64,000 nucleotides of DNA, taken from NCBI RefSeq assembly GCF_000372725.1, contig NW_005202428.1, forward strand, positions 1 to 64,000. Direction: 5' to 3'. The first letter of the stretch is position 1, and each line of letters starts with the position of its first letter. The translations under genes and the position numbers were made by a program. The DNA comes from Emiliania huxleyi CCMP1516. Its lineage: Eukaryota. The notes beneath the pieces were generated by a model. It saw only the letters and a program-made list of their open reading frames with translations. It was not told where the DNA came from and made no database searches. Below are positions 13,449 to 63,993 of this stretch, in pieces.

Positions 13449-15478
13449 CTAGTGGTGCAGTGCCATGGCGTCGTCCACCCGCTGCAGGTTGCGGCGGGTG
13501 ATCACCTTGGTGAGGTGGCGGCGCGCGCCCAAGCACTCCTGCGTGCGTGCCTGCACCGCCGGCGAGTCGAAGTTGGCGATGGACGAGTTGGCGGCGCGGA
13601 GGTTCTGCCGCACGGCGGCCGCGAGCTCCTGAAGGTTGGCCGGCACGGCCTCGAGCTGCAGCACGGCGAGGGCGCCGTTGGTGGCCTCGTCCACCTCATC
13701 CGGCTCGCCGGCGGACTCCTGCTCGGAGCATAGAGGGAGGCTGAGAGGGCGGGGGGGGCAGGGGGGGGGAAGGGCATGCGAGTGCACACCTGTGAAGAGA
13801 TGATGGACGCGGTGGCCTCGGTTGACTGCGAGGTCTCCAGGTCGGCCGGCGCGTCCCACAGGGTGAGGAGTCCGGTGCGGTTGGCGCCGTCCTCGAGGTG
13901 TACCATGAGATGCAGCCTGTCCTCCGCCCGCGAGAGGGCGACATTGAAGATGCATCGCTCCTCGTCCGCCTCCCACGACCGCCACGGGTCGTCCTTGAGC
14001 CTGAGCCGGTCGGGCAGCGGCAGGTGGTCGGGCTGGAAGATGCATACGCGAGTCGCCTGCCGGCCCTTGTACCCGTGGATCGTGGAGACGACGAGCGTGT
14101 CCCCAGCGGCGGCGTCTTCGGTGTACACCTTCTCCAGCCACGCCGAGTACGCGGTCCGCGAGTCGAGCGCGTCGATGTCCCCCGCCGACGCCAGCTTGGA
14201 CCAAGCAGTAATCGATGCCTGCAGGGCGAGGGTGGTGTCGTGGCGCTCGTTCTGCGACGCCGGAGCGGAGCTGTCGAGGCGCAGGTTGAGCCGCGTGAGG
14301 ACGGACGACATGGGCCCCTCGAGCTCACCGAGCAGCTTGAGGACATTGTCGCGGGTGGACTTGCGGCCGACCATCTTGACGTGAATGTAGCCCTTGGAGA
14401 GCAGCACGTTGTAGATCTCGAAGACGGTGGCGGCCATGCGCGTGAGCAGGGCGGTCCTCTCCCCCGCGACGATCGGGTGGGAGTGGAAGGTGACATTCTC
14501 GCGGTACTCGCCGTCGACGTCGCGAATCTGCACGATCGTGTCGGTGGAGCCGGTGGCGGCGAGAGCCGGCTGCGTCGCCTCGATGACGCTGCGGGCGCTG
14601 CGGTAGTTGAGCATGTGGGTGTACTGCTCGCGGCCGTGCAGCATCTGCTCGAGCGTCGCCTGTGGCGAGCATGACGTGTACAGTGTCAGGAGAGGGGGGG
14701 GGGGGGGGCGTGGAAGGGGGGATGCGGGGGGAGGGTTAGGCGAGGCGGGCGCGAGGCGGGAGGGGTGACGGCAGGGCGCCTTATCGCCGCCCATCCAGTA
14801 GTACATCGACTGCGCCGGGTCACCCACCATCAAAAGGTTGGCGCGCCGGCGGACGAGTTGCAGTATGAAGAGGTAGAGGATCCGGGTCACGTCCTGCATC
14901 TCGTCGACCATCACGTGCGTCCACATGCCGAGGTCGAGGTCGAGGTAGACGACAAGGTAGACGAGATCGTGCTGGTCGACGATCGGGAAGGGCACCAGCT
15001 CCCTGGTCACCTCGTTGTAGAGGTGGGTGCAGCCGTCGACGGTGAGCTGCGTGCCGATCTGGATGGAGAGGTCGAGGCAACTCGCGGCGACTTTGAGGCC
15101 GAAGTCGATGCGCCGTGACTCGTCGCCGATCTTGCGCTCGAGCTGCAGCTTCTCCGTCTGGTTGAGCTTGCCCGTCCAGGAGGACGCGAGGACCGGCGCG
15201 AGGTTGTACTCCTCGACGAGCGCGGAGAGCGTCTCGGTGTTGTGGAACGACTCCTCCTGGGGGCAGCCGATGGCCTTCTGCCGCGCGAGGTCCATCACCT
15301 TGGCGACAAACTCGCGGTACAGCTTGGTCAGCGCCTCACCGTGCTCGAAGTTGCGGAAGTAGAAGGAGACGACGAGCCGCGTCTTCTGCTTCACCACGGA
15401 CGGCTCGAACGCGGACAGGTCCCGCGGGTCCTTCCCCGCCATGATCTTGCGGTCCTTGTGCATAGCGCGGTTCCACAT
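13449..15478 (-). CDS. UvrD/Rep-type SF1A helicase, 5'-truncated (no Walker A), with introns at about 14665-14780 and 13730-13790
   Basis: Motifs VMVDEMQD (II), VGDPAQSMY (III), NYRS (IV), VSTIHGYKGRQ (V) and EERCIFNVALSRA (VI). No A/GxxGSGKT exon found upstream. Confidence 0.85.
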
Positions 15479-15715
15479 CTGCGGCGAGGGAGCCCAGAGG
15501 CGGAGGGTGCAGTGAGAGGGGCGGCGCGGCGGCAACAGGGGCGGGGGAGGGGCGGGGGGTGGCGCACGCGCGCACGCAGTCCGTCAGTTAGTCAGTCAGA
15601 GAGACACGCCTCCGCCACCGGCTAACGCCGAAGGCATCGGCGCGCCACAGCCATCGGGAGACCAACGGCATCGGCCGCCTCTGTGACCTGACTCCTGCAA
15701 TCGAATGCGTGTGTC

Positions 15716-16846: not shown

Positions 16847-17222
16847 CCACGCGCGGACTCTGCGGAGAGATGTGAGTTCCGACGCAACCTCATGTGGGGA
16901 TGGATGCTGATGGCGTGTCGAGGCGCGCAGATGTGTTTCGATGTCGCATGCTATACTGCGAGATGAGATCTACCAGCAGCAGCAGCACCACCACCACCAG
17001 CATCAACAGAGACAGGCAGTGCAGGCGCAGAGGCGCTCGCAGAGCGGCGCTCAGCGCCGCGCACGCCACGCTGCGGACCGTCGGACGAGCGCACCGTACG
17101 TCGGCGGCGAGCCGCGTCGCCAGCCGTCTCGCGAGAGAGCGGCGCCGCCGCGTGCGCGCAGCAGCCGCCGCGGCAGAGGCGAGCCGCGGCGACGTCCGCA
17201 CTAACGGATAACGGCCATTGGC

Positions 17223-17260
<38 letters not shown>

Positions 17261-17342
17261 ACTCACACATACATTTTATTTTATTTTGTTTTCGCGCCTT
17301 GTCTGTATCCGCTCGACCGCCCGCGGCGCCCCTTCATTGTCA

Positions 17343-20300
17343 ATGGCGTCTCGGCACTACAGCGCGGCCGAGATTGAGGAGAAGCGGCGCATCGCGTTGA
17401 GCCGCCGGGCGGCGCTGGTGCAGCAGCCACTGCAGCCTCAGCAGTCGCCTCACCGTCCACAGCAGCAGCAGCAGCAGCAGCAGCAACCGCCGCAGCCGCT
17501 GCTGCCTCGGCCCGCAAGCGGCCCGTTGGCTGCGGCTGGCCCTCGGCCTCCGCTGCGCCCCGCGGGGCCGCCTCCAGCGCCGCAGCAGCCATTATGGCGG
17601 CCGCGGCCACCCGGGCCGCCTCAGATGCCGCAGCAGTGTCCGACGCTGCAGCTGCTCACGCCGCCGCAGCCACAGCCAGCGCCACCGCAGCCGCCGCAGC
17701 CCCAGCCGCCACGGCCATGGCTGCCGCCGTCGCAAATGCCGCGGCAGCCGTCGCCGCAGCAAGGGCAGCGGCTGCTGCCGACACGGCAGCAGCACCCGTC
17801 GCCGTTGCGGCCGCCTCCGCCGCCGCGTCCATCGCCGCTACACGCGACGCACCCGCCCGCGCGTCCGCCGGCGCCGCAGCAGCCGCACCCGTCGCCACTG
17901 CGCCCGCCTCTGCAGCCAGCGCCGGTGCAGCCATCGGGGCAGTCTTGGGGTGCGGTGCCACTGCAGCCATCGCCGCGGAACCACGGGCAGGGTGTCGGGC
18001 AGAGCGGGCCCGGCTGGAGTGTGCCGCCGAGAGCCGGCGGGGAGGGGGGCGCGCCGCGGCCGTTCGGCGTCTTGCAGGCGGCGGGCGCCTCCCCGGCCCG
18101 CCAGCAGCCTCGGGCCAAGGTCGCAACGTCTGCGAGGCCCTCCGCCGCCACCCTGCCTGCCCTGCCCGCCGCCGCCGCCGGCGAGGGGGAGGGCAGGGAG
18201 ATTGCGGAGGAGGGCGCGGCGGCGGCGGCGGCGGCGAGCGCGGCGGCGGGCAGCGCCGGCGTGGCGGGCGGCGGCGGCGTGGCGGGCGGCGCGGCGGCGG
18301 CGGCAGGCGCGGCGGCGGCGTGCGCCGCCGGGGCGTCTGGTGCGGCGGGGTCTGCGGCTGCGGCGGCAGACGTGAGCGAGGTCGAGCTGGACGTGGACCA
18401 GGAGCTCGGCGGGCTGCCCGTCCTGCGCGCCACCTTCCCGCCGCCGCTCGCCGCGGTCGCCGCGTCGGAGGCGCTGCTGGCGGTGGCGGGGGTGCGCGTG
18501 CTGCCGGGCGTCAAGGGCGGGCCTCGCAAGCTGGTCTGCCCGATGGGGAGCTACCGCGAGCTGTCGGCGGTGCTGCTCGGGGGAGGCGGCGGCCGGCGGG
18601 TGCGGTTGCGCATGGCGGCGAGCGACGTGGGGCAGCGCGCACTCGAGTACTCTGCCCCGGAGGGCGAGGCCGCTGGCCAGGCGAGGTACGAGCGGCTGCC
18701 ATCGCCCATGCGGGAGGCGCTGCTCCCTTTCCAGCGCGAGGGGGTCCGCTTCGCCCTCTCTCACGGCGGGCGGGTGCTTTTGGCGGACGAGATGGGGTTG
18801 GGAAAGAGCGTGCAGGCGCTCAGCGTCGCCCTCTGCTACCGCGACGAGTGGCCGCTGCTCGTCGTCTGCCCAAAGTCTCTCTGTGGCAACTGGCTCGCCG
18901 AGCTGCGCCGCTGGCTCCCCCTCGTTTGCAGCGCGCCGCTCGCGCCCGCCGCCGCCTCCGCCCCAGGCGGCGAAGCTGTNNNNNNNNNNNNNNNNNNNNN
19001 NNNNNNNNNNNNNNNNNNNNNNNNNNNNNNNNNNNNNNNNNNNNNNNNNNNNNNNNNNNNNNNNNNNNNNNNNNNNNNNNNNNNNNNNNNNNNNNNNNNN
19101 NNNNNNNNNNNNNNNNNNNNNNNNNNNNNNNNNNNNNNNNNNNNNNNNNNNNNNNNNNNNNNNNNNNNNNNNNNNNNNNNNNNNNNNNNNNNNNNNNNGG
19201 GCGCGTCGGGGGGGCGGCGTCAGAGCGGTGCTGTCGGATGTCGACACGTCAGAAGAGGAGGGTGCGGCGGAGGAGGAGGAGGCGGTGGCGGTGGAGGAGG
19301 AGAGGGAGGAGGAGACGGTGGGGACGGAGGTGGCCGCCGCGTGGGCGGGCGAGGGGAAGTGGGGCGGTGAGGCAGAGGCCGCGCGGGGCGCCGGCGCAGC
19401 TGGCGCGTCCGGCTGCGGCGGCGGCGGCGGCGGTTTGGGCGGCGGCGGCGGCGGCGCGCTGCCCCCGCTGCCGCGCGTCCAGCTGGTCGAGAGCGGCAAG
19501 GATTCGCTCTCGGGCGGGTGCGGTGTGGTGGTCATCTCGTACGACCTCGCGGTCCGGCGCGCGGCGGAGCTGCGCGCGGCCGGCTTCGGCGTGGCGATCG
19601 CAGACGAGAGCCACGCGCTCAAGGAGCCCGAGTCGCAGCGCTCGAAGGCGCTGCTGCCGCTGCTGGGAGGCGTGCGCAGGCTCGTCCTCGTCTCGGGCAC
19701 GCCGTCGCCCTCCCGGCCGGCGGAGATCTTCACTCAGGCGAAGCTGCTGCGGCCCGGGATCTTCGGCCGCCGGCAGGACTTCGAGCGGCGGTACGCCGCC
19801 GCACACCAGGGGCGGTTCGGCTGGGACGCTAAGGGCGCGAGCCATGTGAAGGAGCTCCACGCCGTGCTGACGCACGCGCTGATGGTGCGACGCACAAAGG
19901 CGGAGGTGCAGTCGCAGCTGCCGCCAAAGGTGCGAGAGGTGCTGCTGATCGATGCGCCCGAGGCTGCGCGCGCGTGGGCTCGAGTCGAGGCGGAGCGAGC
20001 GGCGGGCCCGGCCAAGGAGCACTCGGCGGAGATGACGCTCGCCTACATGGAGACGGGGCGCGCGAAGGCGGCGGCGGTGGCGGACCACGTCGCGAGGCTG
20101 CTTGCCGCGCCGGGGCGGCGCAAGCTGCTGCTCTTTGGCCACCACAAGGCGGTGCTCGACTTGTGGGAGGAGCGGCTGCGCGGCGTGTGCAGCCACGTGC
20201 GGATCGACGGCGAGGTGCCGCACGAGGCGCGCGACTACCGCGTGGCGACCTTCCAAGGCGACCCGGCCGTACGGCTGGCGATCCTCTCGATCCGGGTGGC

Positions 20301-24438: not shown

Positions 24439-25332
24439 TCAGTCCGGCTGAAGAAAGCCTACGGCGGAGAGCAGTAGCGCCAACGACACTGCGAGCGCCG
24501 CCTCGGTGCGGCCTCGCCTCGTGGCGGCGGCTGCGACGGCGCCGATAGCCAGGGCGAGGTAGAGCGCCTCGATTGCGACGGCGCGCCGCCAGATCGCCAG
24601 CATGCGGTCCGTGTGGGCGCCGCTATCGTTGGCGCGCGGGAAGGGCGTGCGCGGCACGGGCACGCCGAGAAAGGCGCACAGCGGCGCCCAACCGTCCGAG
24701 GCGCGAAAGACAAGCAACCGCTCCGGCGGCACCGCCGCGGCGACCCGCGCATTCCACGCCTCGAAGCGGGTGGCGAGCGCACGCGTGTCACGCAGCTCTC
24801 CAGACATTACGCCGCCGTCAGAGTCCTCAAAAAAGTGGGCGCGGTAGGCGCGGCCGAGCCTGCGGGCGGCCGAGCGGAAAGGCGCAAGCAGAGCCGAGCG
24901 CTCGGCGCTGTACTCGCTCCAAATGGTCGTGGCAACAGATCGCGCCCAGTCGTGCGGGTCGCGCACGGTCAGGATCACCTTGGCGTCTGGAAAGCTCGCG
25001 AGCAACCACTGGTACGCAACCGACGCGGGGAAGTCGACGCTGCAGCCGAAGCCGCTGAGGAGCCCGCGCCAGTCGGCCCGCTCCGGCTCCTCCAGCGCGC
25101 GAGCCCACGGCCGCTCGCGTACCATCTTCGCCACCGCAGCCATGCTGTGGCACGGTCCAAACCCAAGCCGCTCGAGGGCCATGCTGAGCGAGGTCGTGCC
25201 TGTGCGGCCGCAGCCCGCGCCAATGACCTGGAGCTCCGCCGGCCGCTTCCGCGGCCTGGCGCGGTGGCGACCGCTCCGGGCGGAGCTGTTCGGCAGGGCG
25301 TCGAATCTCGCAGCATGGATCTTTTGCGCCAT
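24439..25332 (-). CDS. P-loop sulfotransferase-family protein with C-terminal hydrophobic anchor
   Basis: VIGAGCGRTGTTSL..AL..LGFGPCHSM, VDFPA, PDAKVILTVRD..W..S, VPPERLLVF..DGWAPLCAFLGVPVP..PFPRAN. Confidence 0.9.
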   Translation of the reverse strand: MAQKIHAARFDALPNSSARSGRHRARPRKRPAELQVIGAGCGRTGTTSLSMALERLGFGPCHSMAAVAKMVRERPWARALEEPERADWRGLLSGFGCSVDFPASVAYQWLLASFPDAKVILTVRDPHDWARSVATTIWSEYSAERSALLAPFRSAARRLGRAYRAHFFEDSDGGVMSGELRDTRALATRFEAWNARVAAAVPPERLLVFRASDGWAPLCAFLGVPVPRTPFPRANDSGAHTDRMLAIWRRAVAIEALYLALAIGAVAAAATRRGRTEAALAVSLALLLSAVGFLQPD

Positions 25333-25491
25333 GCCGTCACCCGAAGAGCAGCTTTGAACCCGCCACTCTGACTCGACAGCGAGACGGCGAGTGGCGTCGA
25401 AAAAGTGGCTGCGCAGGCCAGTCAGTGGCAGGCCGCGCCGGCGCCCCAGCGTAGAGCCCCAGTACCCGGGTACGGAGTCGGCTCGACACTA

Positions 25492-47987: not shown

Positions 47988-50900
47988 ATGGGGGCGCGCA
48001 GGACGCCGCCGCACGGCTCGCACGGCAGCGCGGACATCTCCCACGATGCGGACTCCTACCCTCAGGAGGTCGAGGTCGGCAACGTCGAGTACAAGCTGAA
48101 GCTCGTCTCGCCGACGCCGGCGCGCTTCCAGCAGCTGGTGACGCAGCTGGCTTACCGGCTTGCCGAGGGGCGGGGCCGTGCGGTTTACCTCCTCGGCGTG
48201 GAGGACGACGGCGCGCTCCACGGTCTCTGCCCTCGCGACATGTCCGCGTCGCTTGGCACTCTCCGCCGGATGTGCGGCCACGTTTCGGCGCGTATGGTGG
48301 TCGCCGCGCAGCGGACCAAGGGCGTGCCGACGGGGCGGATAGCCGAGGTGCGAATCGAGCAGTTTGCGGAGTGCGCGCAGGTGGAGGTGCGGATCGCGGT
48401 GCTGGGCAGCGCCCAGGCGGGCAAGTCTTCGGTGGTGGGCGTCCTCGCGGGAGGCCCAGGCGCGCTTCTTTGGCAGCACAGAACCCTCCGTTGCGCTCAG
48501 CAGTCTGCGACTCACACCGGTCCGGTGGTGGGGCAGGCGCGCTCGACGACGGCAAGGGCTCCGCGCGGACGCTCGTGATGCGGCACATGCACGAGCTGGA
48601 GACAGGCGCAACGTCCTCCATCTCACAGCAAGTGCTCGGCTTTGACGGCGCCTGCCGGCTGCTCAGCTGTGAACAGCGTCTCTTCACACCTCCTGCTGTG
48701 AACAGGTGCTCGGCTTTGACGGCGCCTGCCGGCTGCTCAACTGGACGGAGGAGCTGTGAACAGCGTCTCTTCACACCTCTTGCCGTGAATAGGCGCCTCG
48801 CGCCTGCTCAACTGGACGGAGGAGCTGGCGCGCACGACGTCGGAGCTGTGCGCCTCCTCGTCGCGGGTGATGACGCTGCTCGATCTCTGCGGCGAAGGCA
48901 GCTACTAATTAACTATTCATTAACTATTAATTAGTTGTTAATTAACTATTGATTACGCTGCTGGACCTCTGCGGCGAAGGCAGCTACTCACGCAACCACA
49001 CAGCCCCGGGCCCCAAGATCGCACACGCACGGGCGGTCGAGAAGGGAGAGACAGCGGCGGCAGTCAGAAGGCAGCACTGCGTCCCAGGAAGGCGAATGCG
49101 AGGCCGGCCTCAAGTGTCGCTGCCCACAGCCAGTCCAGTCCAGCCTTACACACACCGAGGCACGGAGCACGGGCCCACGCGCACACACACGCGCGGCTAC
49201 ACACTCCCCACGCTCGCCGCACACGAGCGGCGCGACAAGCCGACGCGAGGCCACTCTGTGGCACCGGCCACAGTCACGTCTGTGTCGGCCGGCGCCTCCC
49301 CCACGCCACAGGCCGCTACCCCAAGACGACGCTGTGAATTCACTACGGATTGGGTATGACTGAACGATGAATCAGGCCGGTTTCTCAAGACGACGCTCGC
49401 GGGTCTGACCGCGCACGCGCCTGACTACGCGCTGCTCTGCGTCGGGGCGGACGCCGGCATTCATTAACGATTAATTAAATACTAATTAGCTATTAATTAG
49501 GCGCTGCTCTGCGTCGGGGCGGACGTCGGCATCACCGCGGCCACGCGGCTCCACGCGCTGCTTGCGGCGGGGCAGGGCGTCCTAGAAGCAGAGGACGTGT
49601 TCTTGTCTCCCGACTAGCGCCCGAGAGGACACGTCTTCAGCCGTGCTCATCCGTATTCCGCTGCACTCACCTGTGTCACTGTCCGTTGTCTTCCCGCGGT
49701 GCTCTGAATACGCTGCGCAGAACCGCCCTGAGGCTGGTGTCTTCAGCGCGTAGGCTGGGCGTGCCCGTCGTGGCGCTGCTCTGCAAGGCGGGCGTGGTGG
49801 ACGACACCTCATTCACAGCTCAATCAGAGTCCATTCAGAGTGAACTAACGATGAATTAGGCGGACGTGGCGGACGCCACCTCGCTGGGCAACCTCGCCGA
49901 GGCGACGCTGCGGCTGCTGGCGGAGTGCGGCCTGCCGTCCCCGCTCTACCTCGAGAGCGAGGCCGAGCTCGAGGCGAGATGTAGCCGAGAGGCAGCCGAG
50001 AGGCAGCCGAGAGGCAGCCGAGAGGCAGCCGAGAGGCAGCCGAGAGGCAGCCGAGAGGCAGCCGAGAGGCAGCCGAGAGGCAGCCGAGAGGCAGCCGAGA
50101 GGCAGCCGAGAGGCAGCCGAGAGGCAGCGGGGAGGCAGCCGAGAGGCAGCGGAGATGCGGATACACCCCTCGCCAGCCCCCCTCGCCAAGAGAGGGGCGG
50201 CGTGCGCCGGTCGAACGAGCGGTGCTTCGTCGACTCTTTCCCTACTACTATGTTCACAGTTCACCCACACTGACTACACATTGGTGAGCCACACATTGAT
50301 GAACCAGCGGTGCCTCCGCCAGGCGGCGATGCTGGCCGAGCCCCCCCTAATTAATTAATTCATCAATCAATTAGTTAATTCATTTACTTAGGCGGCGGTG
50401 CTGGCCGAGCCGCCCCCCTTCTCTGCGCACTGCCCCTGCCTCGCCCTCCCGCCCAGCGGCGCGGACGGCGGCAGCGAGGACGACAGCGGCGGCGCCGAGC
50501 CGGACGCCGCCGCCGCCGGCGGCGGCGGAGGCGGCGGCGGCGGCGGAGGCGGCGGAGGCGGCGGAGGCGGCGGAGGCGGCGGAGGCGGCGGAGGCGGCGG
50601 CGGCGGCGGAGGCGGCGGAGGCGGCGGAGGCGGCGGAGGCGGCGGAGGCGGCGGAGGCGGCGGAGGCGGCGGAGGCGGCGGCGGCGGAGGCGGCGGCGGC
50701 GGCGGCGGCGGTGGCGGCGGCGGATGCGGCGGTGGGGGCGGTGGGGGCGGTGGGGGCGGCTTCGGCGCTGGCGACGGGGGCGCGGGCGGCGTCACCGGCA
50801 GCGGCGAGGTGGGAGGCGAGGCGGGGGGCTCTGCCGTCCTGCTCTCCTCCTCTCTGCCGACGGCGGGGTCGACGGCTTCGATGCGCAGTTGTGGAAGCAG

Positions 50901-53900
50901 CGACGGCGGCGGGCCCTAGAGAAGCGGAGCACGTATCTCCCCATATCTCGCCGCCCCAGAGAAGCGGAGCGCGTATCTCCCCATATCTCGCCGCCCCAGA
51001 GAAGCGGAGCGCGTATCTCGCCATATCTCGCCGCCCTAGAGAAGCGGAGCGCGTATCTCCCCATATCTCGCCGCCCCAGAGAAGCGGAGCACGTATCTCC
51101 CCATATCTCGCCGCCCCAGAGAAGCGGAGCGCGTATCTCCCCATATCTCGCCGCCCCAGAGAAGCGGAGCGCGTATCTCCCCATATCTCGCCGCCCCAGA
51201 GAAGCGGAGCGCGTATCTCCCCATATCTCGCCGCCCCAGAGAAGCGGAGCGCGTATCTCCCCATATCTCGCCGCCCCAGAGAAGCGGAGCGCGTATCTCC
51301 CCATATCTCGCCGCCCCAGAGAAGCGGAGCGCGTATCTTCCCATATCTCGCCGCCCCAGAGAAGCGGAGCGCGTATCTCCCCATATCTCGCCGCCCTAGA
51401 GAAGCGGAGCGCGTATCTCCCCATATCTCGCCGCCCCAGAGAAGCGGAGCACGTATCTCCCCATATCTCGCCGCCCCAGAGAAGCGGAGCGCGTATCTCC
51501 CCATATCTCGCCGCGCCAGAGAAGCGGAGCGCGTATCTCCCCATATCTCGCCGCCCCAGAGAAGCGGAGCGCGTATCTCCCCATATCTCGCCGCCCCAGA
51601 GAAGCGGAGCGCGTATCTCTCCATATCTCGCACGCCCTAGACTCCCTAGAAGCTGACGCAGCACGCACTCTTGCACTCCAACCGGCGCTCGAGAGGGCAC
51701 GGACTCCGCGCCGCATTCGGCCGTTGCTCCGCTGCAGCTCTGCTGTAGCTCTGCTGTAGTCACTGTGTGCTCGCAGCACCTCGTCCTCACGCTGGGTGCT
51801 CTGACTACTCTGCACAATGCCTGCTCTGATACTCTGCACAATGCCTGCTATGATACTCTGCACAATGCCTGCTCTGATACTCTGCACAATGCCTGCTCTG
51901 ATACTCTGCACAATGCCTGCTATGATACTCTGCACAATGCCTGCTCTGATACTCTGCACAATGCCTGCTATGGTACTCTGCACAATGCCTGCTCTGATAC
52001 TCTGCACAATGCCTGCTCTGATACTCTGCACAATGCCTGCTCTGACTACTCTGCACAATGCCTGCTATGATACTCTGCACAATGCCTGTGCTCTGACTAC
52101 TCTGCACAATGCCTGCTCTGATACTCTGCACAATTCCTGCTATGACTACTCTGCACAATGCCTGCTATGATACTCTGCACAATTCCTGCTATGACTACTC
52201 TGCACAATGCCTGCTCTGATACTCTGCACAATGCCTGCTCTGACTACTCTGCACAATGCCGCCTCCCCGCCCCGAGGGTCAACCGGCATTCTTTGCGCAG
52301 GCGGGGGAGGGTCGACTGGCGGAACAGAGGAGGCGGGCGACGGCGCCACGTCGGCGCAGGCGGAGGCTGTCACGCCGCTGCTCGGGCCCCTAGAAGCGGA
52401 AGATCTCCCCATATCTCCCCCCGTATCTCCCCACATCTCGGACCCCTAGTAGCGGGAGGCGCACTCGGAAGTCACTCGGACCAGCGCTCGAGAGGACGCG
52501 GACTCCGCTGCACTCCGCCGCAGTCGGCTGGGTTCGCTGTGTCCGTAGCCCCTCGTACTCCACGCCGGTGCTCTTCATTGCACTGCGCACGACACCGCAT
52601 TCCCGCGCCGAGAGGGCGGTGTGTCCAGCGCTCCGGCTCGGCATCTCTGCGCGGTCCGGGGGGCCTCTTAGTCCACCATTAGTGGTTGATGCCTTGAGAA
52701 TTCACCACGAGTGAGTGGCAGGCTCGGCATCTCTGCGCGGTCCGGCTAGTAGTGAATTACGTAATCATTCTTACTTGTTGATTTACCACGAGTGGCAGGC
52801 TCGGCATCTCTGCGCGGTCCGGAGCCGGCCTCCCCCTGCTCATCCGCACTCTCGGGCGGCTCCCGCCCCGCGACTGGGGACTTCTGCAAGGCGACGACAC
52901 GCCGCCGCCTCTGTTCTCTGCGTCGGGGGTGTGCGCCCGCAGTGGACGGACCGTCGGGTGGAGCTGATGATAGGAGGGCGGCTGCTGCTCTCCATCGACG
53001 GGTGCCACATGCCGCGCTCCGCTGCCCCCGTGCTCAAGGTTCGGGTACCGTGGGGGTAGGGGATGGGTGCGGGTACCGTGGGGGTAGGGGATGGGTGCGG
53101 GTACCGTGGGGGTAGGGGATGGGTTCGGGTACCGTGGGGGTAGGGGATGGGTTCGGGTACCGTGGGGGTAGGGGATGGGTGCGGGTACCGTGGGGGTAGG
53201 GGATGGGGAGAGCCCTGCTGACTCGTAGCCGGTTGACGGTGACTAGGACGACGACCCTTGGGTCTGCGACGCGCGGGAGTGCGGCGGGGAGGCGCCGGAG
53301 CCTAGAAGCGGACGATCTCCCCATATCTCCCCCCGTATCTCCCCCGTATCTCCCCCACACCTGGCAGCGCGGAGCCTAGAAGCGGAAGACGCACTCTTGT
53401 CCTCCAACCAGCGCTCGAGAGGACACGCACTCATCCGCGCTCCGCCGTATTCAGCCGTGGCATGGTCGCTGTCTCCGCACCCCGTGGTCGCTGCTTCCGC
53501 ACCCCGTGTGCGCCACGCGGAGCTCGGCGTACACTGCACAAGACCGCCAGGCTGGCGTGTTCGCACCGTAGGAGCCGGAGCCGTGCGATGGGCCCGTCGT
53601 CTCAGGCAGACTGCTACCCATCTCGGCTGCATCTCGGCCACACCTCGGCTGTCTCTCGGCGATCTGTCGCGCACATCTGTGGAGCTCGCTCAAGTGCCGC
53701 TCGCGCGCGGGGGGGGCGCTCTATCTCCCCATATCTCCCCACACCTCCCTGTATCTCCCCGTATCTCGGCCCAGGCACGCTGCTGCGCGGCGCACTCTGC
53801 GCGCGCGCCGCCGTCCCCTCGCCCGCCCCCGGCCGGTTGCTCGTCGGCCCCGACGCGCGCGGGCGTTGGGCGCCGGCGACGCTGCGGTCGATCAAGTACA

Positions 53901-55291
53901 AGGAGCTCGGTGTCGGCCGTGCGGTCGCCGGCCAGTCCGCCACCGTCAGCTTGCAGGTCGCCCTAGCGGGTACCGTGGGGGGTAGGGGACGGGTGCGGGT
54001 GCCGTGGGGGTAGGCCAGTCCGCCACGGTCAGCTTGCAGGTCGGCGCCCTAGGGTTCGGGTCCCGGGGGGGTAGGGGATGGTTCGGGCTACCGTGGGGTA
54101 GGGGAGTCCGCCACGGTAAGCTTGCACGTTGCGGCACGCCCCCCCGCGCTGCCCCTCCCCCCCCCCCCCCCCCCTGAGCGTGCAGCTTGGCGTGTGTGCG
54201 CGGTTTGTGCCGCGCCCTCCTCCGCCGCGTGAGTGCGCCTCCCGTCTCGCAGGTTGCGGACGGCGGCGGCTTCAAGCTGCGGCGCGGCATGGTCCTCGTC
54301 GACGAGCGCACGCGGCCGGCGCCGAGCGCCGTGTGCGAGTTCGGGGACGTCTCCGCCACACGTCGGTGACATGTCCGAGACACGCCCGCAGGCGCCGTCC
54401 GCCGTGTGGGAGTTCACCGCGCGCGTGACGGCGATCCAGCTGCCGGCCGAGGTCGTGGCTTACTTCATACTGATTCATGGTAATTAATTAGTTAATAAGA
54501 TCCAGCTGCCGGCCAAGGTCGTGGCTTAATTAATACTGATTCATGGTAATTAATTAGTTAATAAGATCCAGCTGCCGGCCAAGGTCGTGGCTTAATTAAT
54601 ACTGATTCATGGTAGTTAACTAATTAATACTAAGATCCAGCTGCCGGCCAAGGTCGTGGCTGGCGCGGAGCTCGTGCTGTACTGTCTGGGCGTCAAGCAG
54701 GTCGCGCGCGTGCTGCCCGCCGTCAGGAGCGGCGACGCGTCGCCGCCGCACTCTTCCGCCCGAAGTGGCAGCGGAGGCAGCGAGAGCAGAGGCAGCGGAG
54801 GCAGCGAGAGCAGAGGCAGCGGCGGCAGCGGGGGCGGAGGCAGCGGAGGCAGCGAGAGCAGAGGCAGCGGCGGCAGCGGGGGCGGAGGCAGGGGGGGCGA
54901 GGGGAGGGGCGGTGAGGGCAGGGGGGCGGAGGCGAGGGGCGACGGCGACAGCGGCGGCGGGCTGCTCCTCCGGTGCCGCGCCGCGCGGCGTCCTTCTTTT
55001 CTGACCGCTGGCTTTGCGGGGTGTAGGGCTGCTCCGGTACGGCGGCACACAGCTGCTGCGGCTCCGCTTCGTCCACGCGGCGGAGTACTTGCTCGTGGGC
55101 GCCGCTGCTCACAGTGAACGAGGGGCGCGCCGGTGGGAGAGCGGCTGCTCACCGGCTGGCTGTGAACAGGCGCCGCGTGTGTGCTGCGCGAGGGTTCTGC
55201 AGGAGGGCGCGACCTCGGCGTCGCCGTCGGCCGAATACACGCCACCGCAAGCGCGCCAGAGTGCGGCGAGGAGCAGCAGCAGGGAACTTAG
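47988..55291 (+). CDS. GTPBP2: GTPBP1/GTPBP2-family translational GTPase, highly intron-rich
   Basis: [42 protein letters not shown]...AGKSS, LDDGKG.AR....RH.HE.ETG.TSSIS, LLDLCGE, FLKTT, PDYALL, GP...G.W, AGQSAT, LRRGMVL, WEF.A and REG...GVAVG; stop at 55289-55291. Paralog assignment is tentative. Confidence 0.85.
50917..51630. repeat. 40-bp intronic minisatellite (about 18 copies)
   Basis: Unit GAAGCGGAGCGCGTATCTCCCCATATCTCGCCGCCCCAGA. Confidence 0.95.
51798..52260. repeat. 24-bp intronic minisatellite
   Basis: Unit ACTCTGCACAATGCCTGCTMTGAT. Confidence 0.95.
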
Positions 55292-55493
55292 CTGCACCGG
55301 GCGACTCCCACCCGGGAGTTCTTCCTACTCGCCGGAGGTGCCATCGCAGAACGACCATAGTCGTCGCCGCCGAAGTAGACGAGCCCAAAAGGCGCGCAGG
55401 GCCGCAGCTGGTTGGCGATTTTATTAGAGGCGTGTGAAGCAGCGACGCGAGCGCAGCGCGCGCTCTGGGCAGCCTGGAAATAAATGTTGGGCT

Positions 55494-59558: not shown

Positions 59559-59722
59559 AGAGACCGCGTACCGCGAGGAGGACCGAGGGGCACACGGTAG
59601 AGCTGGCGGCCCCAGTGTGTCAAGAAGTGTACACGGTACACGCTGCACGTACACCCTACAGCCTGGTGCAGCATGAGTGTACGGGCGAGACCGAGAGAGC
59701 CGTCACCCGTCCACTCCCAGAG

Positions 59723-60852
59723 CTACCGCGGCCGCTTGCCGATCGGGCACGACACGTGGTGGGGCGAGCGAACCTCCACCTCGAGGACGAGCGCCTGTTC
59801 ACAGTCAAGGCTGTGAATGGACGCCGCCCACAGCCACAGCGGCGACCCGCCTGCTCTGGGTAGAGCTCTGGGCGCCGCTGGCTCGCCGGTAGAGCCTCCG
59901 AGCTCCTTGATGCGGAACTGGCCGCACGCCTGCACCTCCTCCCACGCCATCGCGTTGCCAAACTCGGGCGGGCTGCGCGCGTAGGCCGGGTTGGCGTAGA
60001 GCAGCCCTGCCGCCTACGCTCGCGCAGTCTCCGGCTCATCTCGGGGCAGTCTCGCGCACTCTCGTTGGCGTAGAGCAGCCCTGCCGCCTCGCAAGCGCGG
60101 AAACATGCGGCAAAGCGCTCCGCCGTCTCGAGGTAGACACAGATGTGGTACGCTGCCGCCTCGTTCCGCTCATACTCGTCTGGAGGCGGCGCTGAGCGCC
60201 TCTCGGCGAACACGAGTTGCTGCGGCGCGGCGCCGAAACGAACCACGCACTGCTGCAAGCCGGCGGTGTCTTCGCCACTCCCCGCCCCGCCGGCAACGCC
60301 GCCCTCGCACCACAGAGGCGGCGTGCCTGAAGGCTGAAGCTCGCACGCCTCGCCGCCCAGCGTCTCCTTCCAGAAGTGCGCAAGCCGCGCGGCGGCGCCG
60401 GGGCGCACATCGTGCACGGCGCGGACCAGACGCGTCAGAGCACCGCTGCCGGAGGGGTGGCACCCCCAGCCATCGCAGCTTCCGGGCGCCTCGTGCCGAA
60501 TCACAAAGGCGTTGCCGTACGGGCAGCGGACTCGCAGGACGTCGCTCGCGCCATCTCGCACATGGCCACGCAGCTTGTGCCGCGTGAGCCGGTCGGCAAT
60601 CGCGTCGAGCCGCTCCGACGTCCACAGCTCGATCTCGCCCGCCCAGCGCTGCGCCGCGGTCACCGGTGTGACACCCTCCGCCTTACCATACTTGCGCAGC
60701 AGGTGGAACTGCGTCGCTCCCATGTTGACGTGAAGCTGCCGCTCGTTCGTCGTCGGCTCATTCACGACGGCGCCGAGGCAGGAGACGTAAAACTCGCGTG
60801 CCGTCGGCTCGTCGAGGATGTTGAGGTTGATGTGCTCAAGCAGCGCAGTCAT
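59723..60852 (-). CDS. VOC/glyoxalase-like protein (3 exons)
   Basis: LLEHINLNI.D...AREFYV..LG, LHVNMGATQFHL, RCPYGN.F, YHICVY, QFRIK and LEVEVRS..H..CP. Confidence 0.8.
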
Positions 60853-61074
60853 CGTCGGGAAGCCTGCGAGTGCCTGCCAGCCGACGAGTGCATGCAGCCT
60901 GCGAGTGCCTGCCTGACAAAAAAAGAAATACGCGGTTTTAAAAAAAGAAAAGAACAAGGAAAAGAAATTGTGGGGGCGGGGGGGGTTGTGTGACAAAAGA
61001 ATTTTCCGACAAAACTCCCTCGGAAAAAAATGAATTTTACAACGAAAGGCGGTCGCACGACACGATTCACGCCC

Positions 61075-61395
61075 TAGCAGCCCGAGCAGCAGCCCGAGCA
61101 GCAGCCCGAGCAGCAGCCCGAGCAGCAGCCCGAGCAGCAGCCCTCACAGCAGCCCTCACAGCAGCAGCAGCCCGAGCAGGGGCCCTCGCAGCAGCCCGAG
61201 CAGCAGCCCGAGCAGCAGCCCGAGCAGCAGCCCGAGCAGCAGCCCGAGCAGCAGCCCGAGCAGCAGCCCGAGCAGCAGCCCTCACAGCAGCAGCAGCCCG
61301 AGCAGGGGCCCTCGCAGCAGCCCTCGCAGCAGCCCTCGCAGCAGCCCTCGCAGCAGCCCGAGCAGCAGCCCGAGCAGCAGCCCGAGCAGCAGCCC
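61075..61395. repeat. 12-bp tandem repeat (GCAGCAGCCCGA)n
   Basis: Directly visible array immediately upstream of the first recognisable OPT exon. Confidence 0.9.
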
Positions 61396-63993
61396 ATAGC
61401 TCTCTACTACGCGCTCAAGGTCGTTGCTCGTCACCTACATCTCGGCTGCATCTCGGCTGCATCTCGGCTGCATCTCGGCTGCATCTCGGCTGCACCTCGG
61501 CTGCCCCTCGGCTTCACCTCGGCTTCACCTCGGCTTCACCTCGGCTGCAGCTCGGCTGCACCTTGGCTGCACCTTGGCTGCACCTCGGTGACATCTCGGT
61601 GACGTCTCGGTGCCTGCCTGACTCGGCTGCCTGACCGCGCCAAGGTTGGCTCGGTGCCGTCGCTCAACATCGCCGCCGCGTTGGGCGGCTACCTTGCGAT
61701 GAAGGCACGGGCCACATCTCGCACATCGATCGTCCACCTCGGCTGTCCCCGCTGACCAGCGGCTCTGGCGACGGAAGGCGGCGCTGCGCTGCATGCCGCT
61801 CGCCCGCTCGTTCACGGCGCAGGAGAGCTGCGCCAGCGGCCCGCATGTGCGTTGCTCTACGAGTGAGCAGCGTCTCTCCACGATTCCGAATTTGAACAGG
61901 AGAATTGCGTCGCGCAGACTTGCGCCGTCGCTGGCTACTCGATGATTGCGGCCGGAGGTTTCTCCTCCACGCTCCTGGCGCTGAGCCGCGAGGAATATTT
62001 GGCGATGGCTGCCGGAGCGGTCGGCGACCAGGCCGGCAACAACGCGGCCGACGCGTATGATCTGACGTGGGGCCGCTGCGTCGGTTGGTGCGTCAGCCTC
62101 GCCCTTTTCGGTTTCTTCGTCGCGATTCCGTTGCGTAAGAAGCTCGTGGTCGACTACCAGCTGCTCTTCCCCTCGGGAACCGCCGCGGCCCACCTCATCC
62201 AGAACCTAAACGCGCCCGACGGTGCCGCGTCTGCGCTCGCGCAGTGGACGCGGCTGCGGAGGTACCTTGGCCTCTCCTTCACCTGGTCCGCCTTCAAGTG
62301 GGCCTTCACCCTCGAGCGGTGGCCGCTGTTTGGCATGGCAGCCTTTGAGCGCTACGGCTGGGAGACGGGCTTTCACGCTGGGTACGTCGGCACCGGGCTC
62401 ATCATGCCGCTCCAGGTGTCCCTCTCGATGCTCCTCGGCGCGGTGGTCAGCTGCGGCGTCATGGCTCCCTACCTGCAGAACCATCGTGCGGACTACACCT
62501 GTCCGCTGGCCGGCGCGGGCAGTGGCGTCGATTGCGTCCTCAAGCAGGGCAAGTGGTACAACGGCCATCTCGATGCGGGCGGCTCCATACACGGTCAGTA
62601 TGGGTACAAGGTCTTCACGGCCCTCTCCATCATTCTGGTGGACGCCGTCATGAACTTGGTCAAGGTTACCGCCAAGATCATTTGCGACCTCCGCGCCCCG
62701 GCGGGCAATGCGTCGCTACCAAGCAAGGCGGCGCAAGCGCCAGACCAAGGCGGGAAGGGCGGCGGCGGCGGCGATTGCGGGCGGGCCAAGAATAGCAGCG
62801 GCCATGACGCCGAGAAGGACCGCATCTTTTGCAGCGAGGCGGTGCCTGCGCGGCTGTGGCTCGGCGGACTCGCGGCGTGTGGCGCGCTGGCAATGGTGCT
62901 GCTGCCGCGCCTCTTCGACGTGACCTGGTACATGGTCTTCATCGCGCTGCTTTGCGCGCCGCCCTTCTCGGTCGGCATCATCTACGGCACCGGCCTCACG
63001 GACCACAACCTCGCGAGCGCCGTCGGCAAGCTCGCGATGTTTGCGTTTGGCCCAGCGGGGAACGGCTCCATCACCCCCGCCCTCGTCATGTGCGGCCTTG
63101 TCATCTCGGTCTGCTCTCAGGCGACGGACCTGATGCAGGATTTCAAGGCGGGATATCTTGTCCGGGCGCGGCCCCGGGCAATGCTTGTCGCGCAGCTCGT
63201 CGGCGCGCTGTTCAGCTCCATCATGGCGCCGTCGCTCTTTGCGCTGTACATACGCGCATTCGAGATTCCGGGCCCAGTCTACAAGGCGCGAGCCGCGCTT
63301 GTCCGCTGCACCCGACGCGCTTCAATGTGCGGTCGCGTTCCCACTCCGCTCCCGCCCGGCGTTGCGTGCAGGCGCCCTTTGGCCGCGTTTACCGCGCAAT
63401 GGCCATCGTCGCCACCAGTGGCCTCGACGCACTCCCCGCGCACTGTTGCAGCCTCTGCGCCGCCTTTGCCGCCTTTTCCTTTGCCGTCGCTGCCGCCGCA
63501 GAGTCGCCTCGGTGCAGCGCGATCAAGCCGCTCCTCCCCTCCCCGCTGGCGATGGGGGTGGGCGTGCCTTCTCGGGACCCATTCAATCGGCTACCCATCT
63601 CTTCTCACCCAAGACATGTGCGCAGGTGGGAATGTACCTTGGGACGTCGCTTGCCGTGGACTCCACCGTCGGCGGGCTGATCGCCCACCACTGGAGGACC
63701 TCCGACCCAGCCGGGTGCGTGCGCGGAGCTCGCCATCACCAACAACCGTGAGGAGACGCCACTCGCAACGCTTGCCCTTAGGTATGCTGCCTTCTACCCC
63801 GTCGTCGGCAGCGGCCTCATCGCCGGAGAGGGGCTCTGGTCGCTGCCTCAGGTGTCATCCGCTCCACTCCCTCCTCCGCGCTGACGACAAGCCCGGGTCT
63901 CACCAGACACTGGTGTGCGTGGCATAGGTGCTGCTCGCAATCGCGCGGGTGAAGCCGCCCGTCGCAATCGGCTTCTCGAGCGGTGGAGCGTGA
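61396..63993 (+). CDS. OPT/YSL (yellow-stripe-like) transporter, multi-exon, 5' end unresolved
   Basis: YYALK/VGSVPSLNIAAALGG, FTAQENCVAQT, AIPLRKKLVVDY.L.FPSGTA.A.LI, YVGTGLI, YGTGLTD.NLAS..GKL, DLMQDFKAGY, APFGRVYRAMA and GSGLIAGEGLW; stop at 63991-63993. Confidence 0.92.

Follow-up and report, generated by a model that had tools for sequence, protein, structure and literature searches.

An old family of 181-bp, probably hAT-like transposable elements and the likely birth of introns in Emiliania huxleyi

We analysed a 64,000-nucleotide (nt) stretch of the Emiliania huxleyi CCMP1516 genome (positions 1 to 64,000 of contig NW_005202428.1, forward strand; hereafter the window), in which a single GTPBP2-like gene carries four introns that contain homologous copies of one short repetitive element. 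The model of this gene, 936 amino acids long and interrupted by 17 introns, draws on homologues of exon 1 and on RNA joints. Exon 1 has 345 homologues, those with a name being GTP-binding protein 2, and it matches GTPBP1 in the PDB (E 1e-18); past about residue 740, towards the 3′ end, the model is without homology backing. Homologues are colinear with the junctions of copies 1 and 3, and conservation is poor around copies 2 and 4. The donors of the 17 introns are GC in 14 cases and GT in three, and the GC content is near 65%. The gene, its four element-bearing introns and the target-site duplications (TSDs) that flank the copies are laid out as follows.

47988..55437, plus strand: GTPBP2-like host gene.
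49572-49753, plus strand: intron 1, GC..AG, 182 nt (158-nt gap arithmetic, homologue colinearity), made of one exon G, the left TSD (49573-49580) and the element (49581-49754) minus its last G.
49755-49762: right TSD of copy 1, exonic, a 7/8 match to the left TSD.
50906-52300, plus strand: intron 2, GC..AG, 1395 nt (contig-length arithmetic), with left TSD 50907-50914, outer 5′ end 50915 and element body 51645-52301.
50913..51641, plus strand: array of 40 bp x 18.2, the element 5′ tip plus CATATCTC-type filler (Tandem Repeats Finder (TRF), consensus comparison).
51797..52260, plus strand: array of 24 bp x 19, amplified from element positions ~120-143 (TRF).
52302-52309: right TSD of copy 2, a 5/8 match.
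52380-52798, plus strand: intron 3, GC..AG, 419 nt (direct RNA joint, homologue colinearity), with left TSD 52381-52388, outer 5′ end 52389, body 52445-52636 and a decayed right end.
53292-53571, plus strand: intron 4, GC..AG, 280 nt (contig-piece and overlap arithmetic), with left TSD 53293-53300, outer 5′ end 53301 and body 53375-53572.
53573-53580: right TSD of copy 4, a 7/8 match.

The four segments start with CCTAG(A/T)AGC at 49581, 51645, 52445 and 53375, as an initial annotation of the window had pointed out, and they are homologous, with pairwise identities of 61-69%. The spans which that annotation took for introns begin with CC and therefore cannot be introns; they mark the element, and for copies 2-4 a cut at these positions leaves a truncated reading frame. 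In all four introns the donor lies 9 nt upstream of the outermost CCTAG, and in copies 2-4 the 5′ tip of the element has been re-duplicated together with filler, so that the true outer ends are at 50915, 52389 and 53301. The ends read CCTA..TAGG in copies 1 and 4, the initial annotation having likewise counted two copies with such inverted ends; copy 2 ends in CAGG, and the end of copy 3 has decayed. An AG acceptor at the element end is found, as anticipated, in copies 1, 2 and 4, but not in copy 3, where RNA places the acceptor at 52798 rather than 52628, within a copy of the start of the downstream exon that was duplicated later. The flanking duplication, earlier put at about 9 bp, is 8 bp long with a G before it: GC(A/T)GGGCGT does flank copy 1, but GCCGGAGCC, the duplication suggested for copy 4, takes in two bases of the element, and the second of its copies begins at 53574 instead of 53573.

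Splicing of these introns was examined in four RNA runs from three studies. The joint 52379->52799 (GC..AG), which removes copy 3, is present in all four runs. For copies 1, 2 and 4, splicing follows from exact contig-length arithmetic in run X12. The 158 nt between the pieces of record 9 equal 55+71+32, a sum obtained only when intron 49572-49753 is removed; the 424 nt of record 10 equal 110+80+90+65+45+34 once introns 2, 3 and 4 are cut out; and records 10 and 12 overlap by exactly 30 nt (the unitig overlap, 53574-53603), their pieces measuring 45 and then 34 nt. The copies coincide with spliced introns, as the initial annotation had supposed.

The element is not confined to this gene. A metagenome scan with one degenerate pattern returned at least 128 matches at 121 or more loci, with at least 108 distinct insertion sites. 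A family profile built from 58 metagenome copies only finds the window copies at E 4e-42, 7e-23, 1e-24 and 1e-29, matches the 3′ piece of copy 2 as well, and detects nothing more in the 64 kb. The family consensus, to which the window copies are 73-82% identical, is 181 bp long, has terminal inverted repeats (TIRs) that match at 13 of 17 positions and carries about ten GTATTC-like subterminal motifs; conservation drops to background outside the element ends. Among the matches listed, the 58 full copies average 76.6% pairwise identity and are 74-92% identical to the consensus. The most similar pair reaches 94.7%, so near-identical copies indicative of recent activity are absent from these matches: the family is old. 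One metagenome locus (L104) is the orthologue of copy 3, with 96% identity, and the metagenome loci thus come from the species of the window or a close one. The profile gave no match on 28 viral-contig loci picked up by a 16-mer end pattern, and a search of prokaryote genomes gave 0 matches; a single Rfam match, far under the gathering score, was dismissed as chance.

Sequencing depth over the 5′ part of the element is ~266x (run X1) and ~443x (run X5) that of the flank, and the likeness filter behind this depth would be passed by 16 of 107 sampled copies. Together, these values suggest roughly 2,000-3,000 copies, which, depth being no copy number, is an order of magnitude only; published Introner families range from 5 to >2,000 copies. 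Thirteen distinct loci (L003, L007, L009, L016, L023, L025, L034, L039, L048, L050, L055, L084 and L118) contain two copies, always on the same strand (13/13), with gaps below 100 nt in seven. The likeness of neighbouring copies does not exceed that of randomly drawn pairs (0.76 vs 0.78, p 0.14), and local hopping is at most a possible cause of the clustering.

To characterise the insertion sites, we scored 110 items, namely 106 sites, two others being too short, and the four window copies. A right end could be called in 74, of which 68 (65 metagenome, 3 window) survived the flank filters; the 42 dropped items were truncated, decayed or had unresolved 5′ duplications. In the 65 metagenome sites, the left and right flanks agree only at a length of 8 bp (identity 0.67, against 0.33 when shuffled; 0.22-0.33 at other lengths). 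Nine of these TSDs are perfect and 31 match at 6 or more of the 8 positions. The target conforms to nTnnnnAn, with T at the second position in 27/65 (p 3e-7) and A at the seventh in 30/65 (p 5e-9). A G stands directly before the TSD (position −9) at 52 of the 65 sites (background 0.34, p 3.5e-14) and at 29 of the 31 clean ones, but the mirror C at +9 is not enriched (24/65, p 0.44).

This G and the first base of the duplication form the donor. Among the 52 sites with G the donor is GC in 32, GA in 14, GT in six and GG in none; the GC:GA:GT ratio equals that of exonic G-N dinucleotides minus GG (chi-square p 0.29-0.51), and the chance of drawing no GG donor is about 4e-8. The element supplies the acceptor end only, and the donor comes from the target, being made of the exon G and the opening base of the duplication.

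Orientation was scored with a model of codon use that had learned from 1,595 codons of the window and that prefers the sense strand at 46/51 sites with G and 9/13 without. Of 49 loci, 16 match 16 different Pfam families (88 sense-frame pieces, with no antisense control), and for HSP70, RPE65 and DUF6938 the match stays colinear from one side of the junction to the other; sense-oriented introns in unrelated genes were what the initial annotation had proposed to look for. A branch-point-like CT[GCA]A motif lies 16-42 nt upstream of the acceptor at 42/65 sense ends and at 0/65 antisense ends, and since both element ends offer AG-G, this motif probably accounts for the one-way orientation. Over 8 bp, the right end is a mirror of the left one at two loci (L065 and L006). 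In the former, where the TSD is perfect, position −9 is not G and the opposite strand offers a GT, the intron may be in reverse orientation.

Splicing outside the window is best seen at a threonine dehydrogenase-like (TDH) locus (L028) with a perfect TSD and a GA donor. An RNA contig of run X12 skips 194 nt together with two other introns, and on the gene strand GA..AG is the only G..AG cut that fits; a GT..AG label for the joint belongs to the non-coding strand and was rejected. Run X11 contains the same join with an overhang of just 15 nt, and DNA runs X1 (run type not on record) and X5 read from the exon into the element. The closest named relatives of the protein at this locus fall in clusters with members from Tisochrysis lutea (86%) and Prymnesium parvum (83%), by which the host is a haptophyte. 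An Hsp70 locus (L019) likewise has a GA-AG intron, its junction flanked by HSP70 profile positions 363-394 and 396-429.

With its short, non-coding 181 bp, its TIRs and TSD and its high copy number (at least 108 sites), the element has the properties of a MITE (miniature inverted-repeat transposable element). Its introns also have the properties by which Introners are recognised: (i) similar introns in unrelated genes (at least 108 sites; 16 Pfam families), (ii) similarity that runs to the intron ends in one orientation, the 3′ end being the acceptor and the 5′ end lying 9 nt inside the donor, (iii) correct splicing out of exons (the joint of copy 3, the arithmetic for copies 1, 2 and 4, and L028) and (iv) the transposon hallmarks of an 8-bp TSD and TIRs matching at 13 of 17 positions. 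The mobile, Introner-like family of the initial annotation thus holds up, recast as an old family of TIR/TSD DNA elements.

Considering all of the above, we regard it as very probable that one ~181-bp element with an 8-bp TSD and imperfect TIRs of 17 bp, likely a non-autonomous hAT-like transposon, gave rise to the inserts, diverged copies which are skipped within introns that run from a G+TSD donor to the AG of the element. The hAT-like assignment is for its part reasonably probable. A transposase supplied in trans would cut an 8-bp target, preferring nTnnnnAn, and insert the element to give the G-[TSD]-CCTAG...TAG-G-[TSD] arrangement that is seen in the sequence. Splicing then proceeds from the G-H donor (H, any base but G) to the AG at the element end, as joints indicate for copy 3, whose acceptor was later replaced, and for L028, and length arithmetic for copies 1, 2 and 4. 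The terminal G of the element substitutes for the exon G lost to the intron, and the mRNA is therefore identical to the empty-site sequence. Exonic copies would persist only at targets that follow a G and open with another base, and only if the CT[GCA]A end lies downstream; other insertions would break the gene and be purged, and such purifying selection may explain the G at −9, the lack of GG donors and the strand bias. Subsequent decay, visible in the window, involves local duplication with filler and microsatellite growth, which produced the 18-unit array of copy 2, its internal 24-mer x19 and, after the right end had decayed, the new acceptor of copy 3.

Several observations weigh against this model. 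Neither a transposase nor a longer coding copy, which the initial annotation had proposed to seek, is present in 29 open reading frames of the window and 88 flank pieces. The joints of copies 1, 2 and 4 are not among the 15 listed (34 more are unlisted). No empty allele, and hence no strain polymorphism of the kind once suggested, appears in the two DNA runs (X1 and X5) at L028, the sole locus checked. Because splicing yields an mRNA that cannot be told from an empty allele by its sequence, and the RNA and DNA come from different samples, the evidence from this locus is support and no proof. Furthermore, 13 of the 65 sites have no G at −9, although about seven of them regain a G-H donor by a 1-nt slip, and five of the 51 G-sites score higher in antisense. 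The shared ancestry of the copies also makes element-internal counts, such as that of the branch motif, non-independent. Lastly, the terminal consensus of hAT elements is (C/T)A(A/G)NG, and both ends of the present element begin with CCTA, for which reason we file it as hAT-like and not as a member of hAT.

This last point leads to the alternative that survives best, an unlikely one in our estimate, in which the same element belongs to another superfamily with an 8-bp TSD, and the G(−9) and orientation biases reflect the preference of its transposase. The P, Merlin, Novosib and Zisupton-like superfamilies have such TSDs. The CC termini depart from the hAT consensus, no transposase is present in the frames and flank pieces searched, and a Repbase Novosib entry for E. 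huxleyi is named in the accessible part of file 8 of PMC12130899; the symmetric preference for T2 and A7, however, fits hAT-Ac, and a bias for G at −9 and against G at +1 is asymmetric and would not easily come from a dimeric transposase.

The elements could also be MITEs that landed in introns already present, decorating rather than creating them. In keeping with this, introns 2-4 reach 65-740 nt past the element body, and the acceptor of copy 3 lies outside the element. However, this surplus sequence traces to the element tip or to the exon start, the donor is fixed at −9 (52/65), the right TSD is exonic, the acceptor is the terminal AG of the element itself, and the introns of copy 1 and L028 consist solely of G, TSD and element, all of which renders later insertion highly improbable. 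We give equally little credence to a spread via RNA, by reverse splicing of lariats into other transcripts without a DNA transposase. Such a route would explain the strong sense bias (46/51) and the same-strand neighbours in all 13 two-copy loci, but the first 9 nt of the intron repeat the downstream exon and are different at every site, the 8-bp TSD, TIRs and nTnnnnAn target require a staggered DNA cut, and L065 has a perfect TSD despite lacking the G at −9. A local duplication restricted to the GTPBP2-like gene, to which the crowding of all four window copies within 4 kb of the 64 kb might point, is refuted by the 108 or more distinct sites elsewhere and by window copies that are less alike (61-69%) than the family mean of 77%.

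The transposon model concerns four of the 17 introns, and the other 13 (48460-55169) have a character of their own. Eight begin with a copy of the first 7-32 nt of the next exon (22, 32, 23 and 24 nt at 48648, 49429, 49788 and 54319, respectively), followed by AT-rich or CATATCTC-type filler, and several are 71-77 nt long. Duplication plus filler looks like a second route of intron making in this gene, and its products may be the 70-nt E. huxleyi families of published surveys. The intron at 48898-49375 contains a second dispersed repeat, shared with L030, L036, L053 and L059 at 81-87% identity over 68-130 nt, which seems to sit inside the element copies in L036 and L053. An exonic GGC/GGA microsatellite (50517-50759) encodes ~80 successive glycines within the modelled G-domain region, where RNA cover is repeat-masked. 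The window has one gap of N (18980-19198), and its five neighbouring genes, listed below, contain no copies of the element.

13502-15580, minus strand: UvrD-like helicase gene.
17205-18977, plus strand: SNF2 domain gene.
24442-25488, minus strand: sulfotransferase gene.
59659-61143, minus strand: gene with a weak glyoxalase match.
61867-63924, plus strand: OPT transporter gene.

These observations bear on the unusual donors of E. huxleyi, which, according to the part of PMC4028052 available to us, are 56% GC, 40% GT and 4% GA, a spectrum attributed there to GC content. The 14 GC donors of the 17 window-gene introns and the base composition of the window agree with that description. A bolder possibility, which we advance tentatively and with more doubt than conviction, is that the spectrum largely records intron birth, the donors having been borrowed from GC-rich exons by the hAT-like Introner and by duplication plus filler. 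Twelve of the 17 introns of the GTPBP2-like gene begin with a copy of the first bases of the next exon. As the ~181-bp family alone would account for a few percent of introns, this proposal needs the duplication-plus-filler route found in eight of the other 13. If true, a large share of E. huxleyi introns would be young, and the spliceosome would tolerate any G-H donor in a newborn intron. The family offers (i) a testable cause for the GC and GA donors of E. huxleyi, (ii) a clean example, with an 8-bp TSD, of intron birth that leaves no scar, (iii) hundreds of natural insertions in which donor tolerance can be read, GC, GA and GT being accepted and GG not, and (iv) a profile that would correct many gene models. 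It is possibly among the larger Introner families, in a globally important alga.

The accessible parts of PMC9860276, PMC12130899 and PMC11282704 attest that Introners as such, hAT-class Introners, donors derived from TSDs and donors of the GC and GA types have all been published before. For the E. huxleyi CCMP1516 families, which likewise form introns in genes of this species, Table 6 of PMC9860276 gives mean lengths of 70, 70, 37, 37 and 37 nt, and the available part of file 8 of PMC12130899 gives fam11, fam24 and fam4 at ~67, 70 and 38 nt; none of those tabulated is near 190 nt or has an 8-bp TSD or GA donors. The family is missing from these tables, likely because GC and GA donors escape ab initio gene models and its copies are diverged. 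Its motifs are absent from the obtainable supplements of both papers, though these may hold no sequences, and a literature search that left aside Repbase, Dfam and subscription papers found no description of it; it may exist in the two databases as an unclassified repeat.

The closest published counterpart in the accessible record is the Introner of Fig. 2B in PMC9860276, also a non-autonomous TIR element that carries its acceptor, takes its donor from the target and leaves the mRNA length unchanged. It differs in having a TSD of 4 bp rather than 8; here, moreover, the donor combines the first TSD base with the G in front of it, the terminal G repairs the exon, GT is a minority donor (6/52) and the mean pairwise identity is 77%. 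The GC and GA donors of the present family fall within the ranges reported in the same paper (GC 0-50%, GA 0-40%). Aureococcus Introners (Fig. 2F of PMC9860276) share the 8-bp TSD and a marine algal host, but, as presented there, carry both splice sites and add 12 nt to the mRNA, whereas the present family adds none. The hAT-classified Introners in the visible portion of file 8 of PMC12130899 (Panicum fam14, Styela fam1, Fusarium fam2, Zymoseptoria) are also non-autonomous intron formers of the hAT type, some with an 8-bp TSD; the best 30 of 63 matches are small families (4-28 copies), mostly with GT donors and labelled ‘co-opt both’, and the 15 haptophyte rows include no family classed as hAT or TIR DNA.

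In the accessible text of PMC8961557, hAT elements are defined by an 8-bp TSD and short TIRs of 10-25 bp, and the present element has both, together with the nTnnnnAn target of the Ac family. In the portions of PMC10368747 and PMC8961557 at hand, Hermes and hobo (hAT, Ac family) and their MITEs resemble it in the 8-bp TSD, the nTnnnnAn target and the subterminal repeats, and the Hermes TIR is 17 bp, short and imperfect. The present element departs from Hermes and hobo in starting with CC and in having no identified transposase. We conclude that the mechanism of intron birth is a known one and that the family itself is likely new for E. huxleyi.

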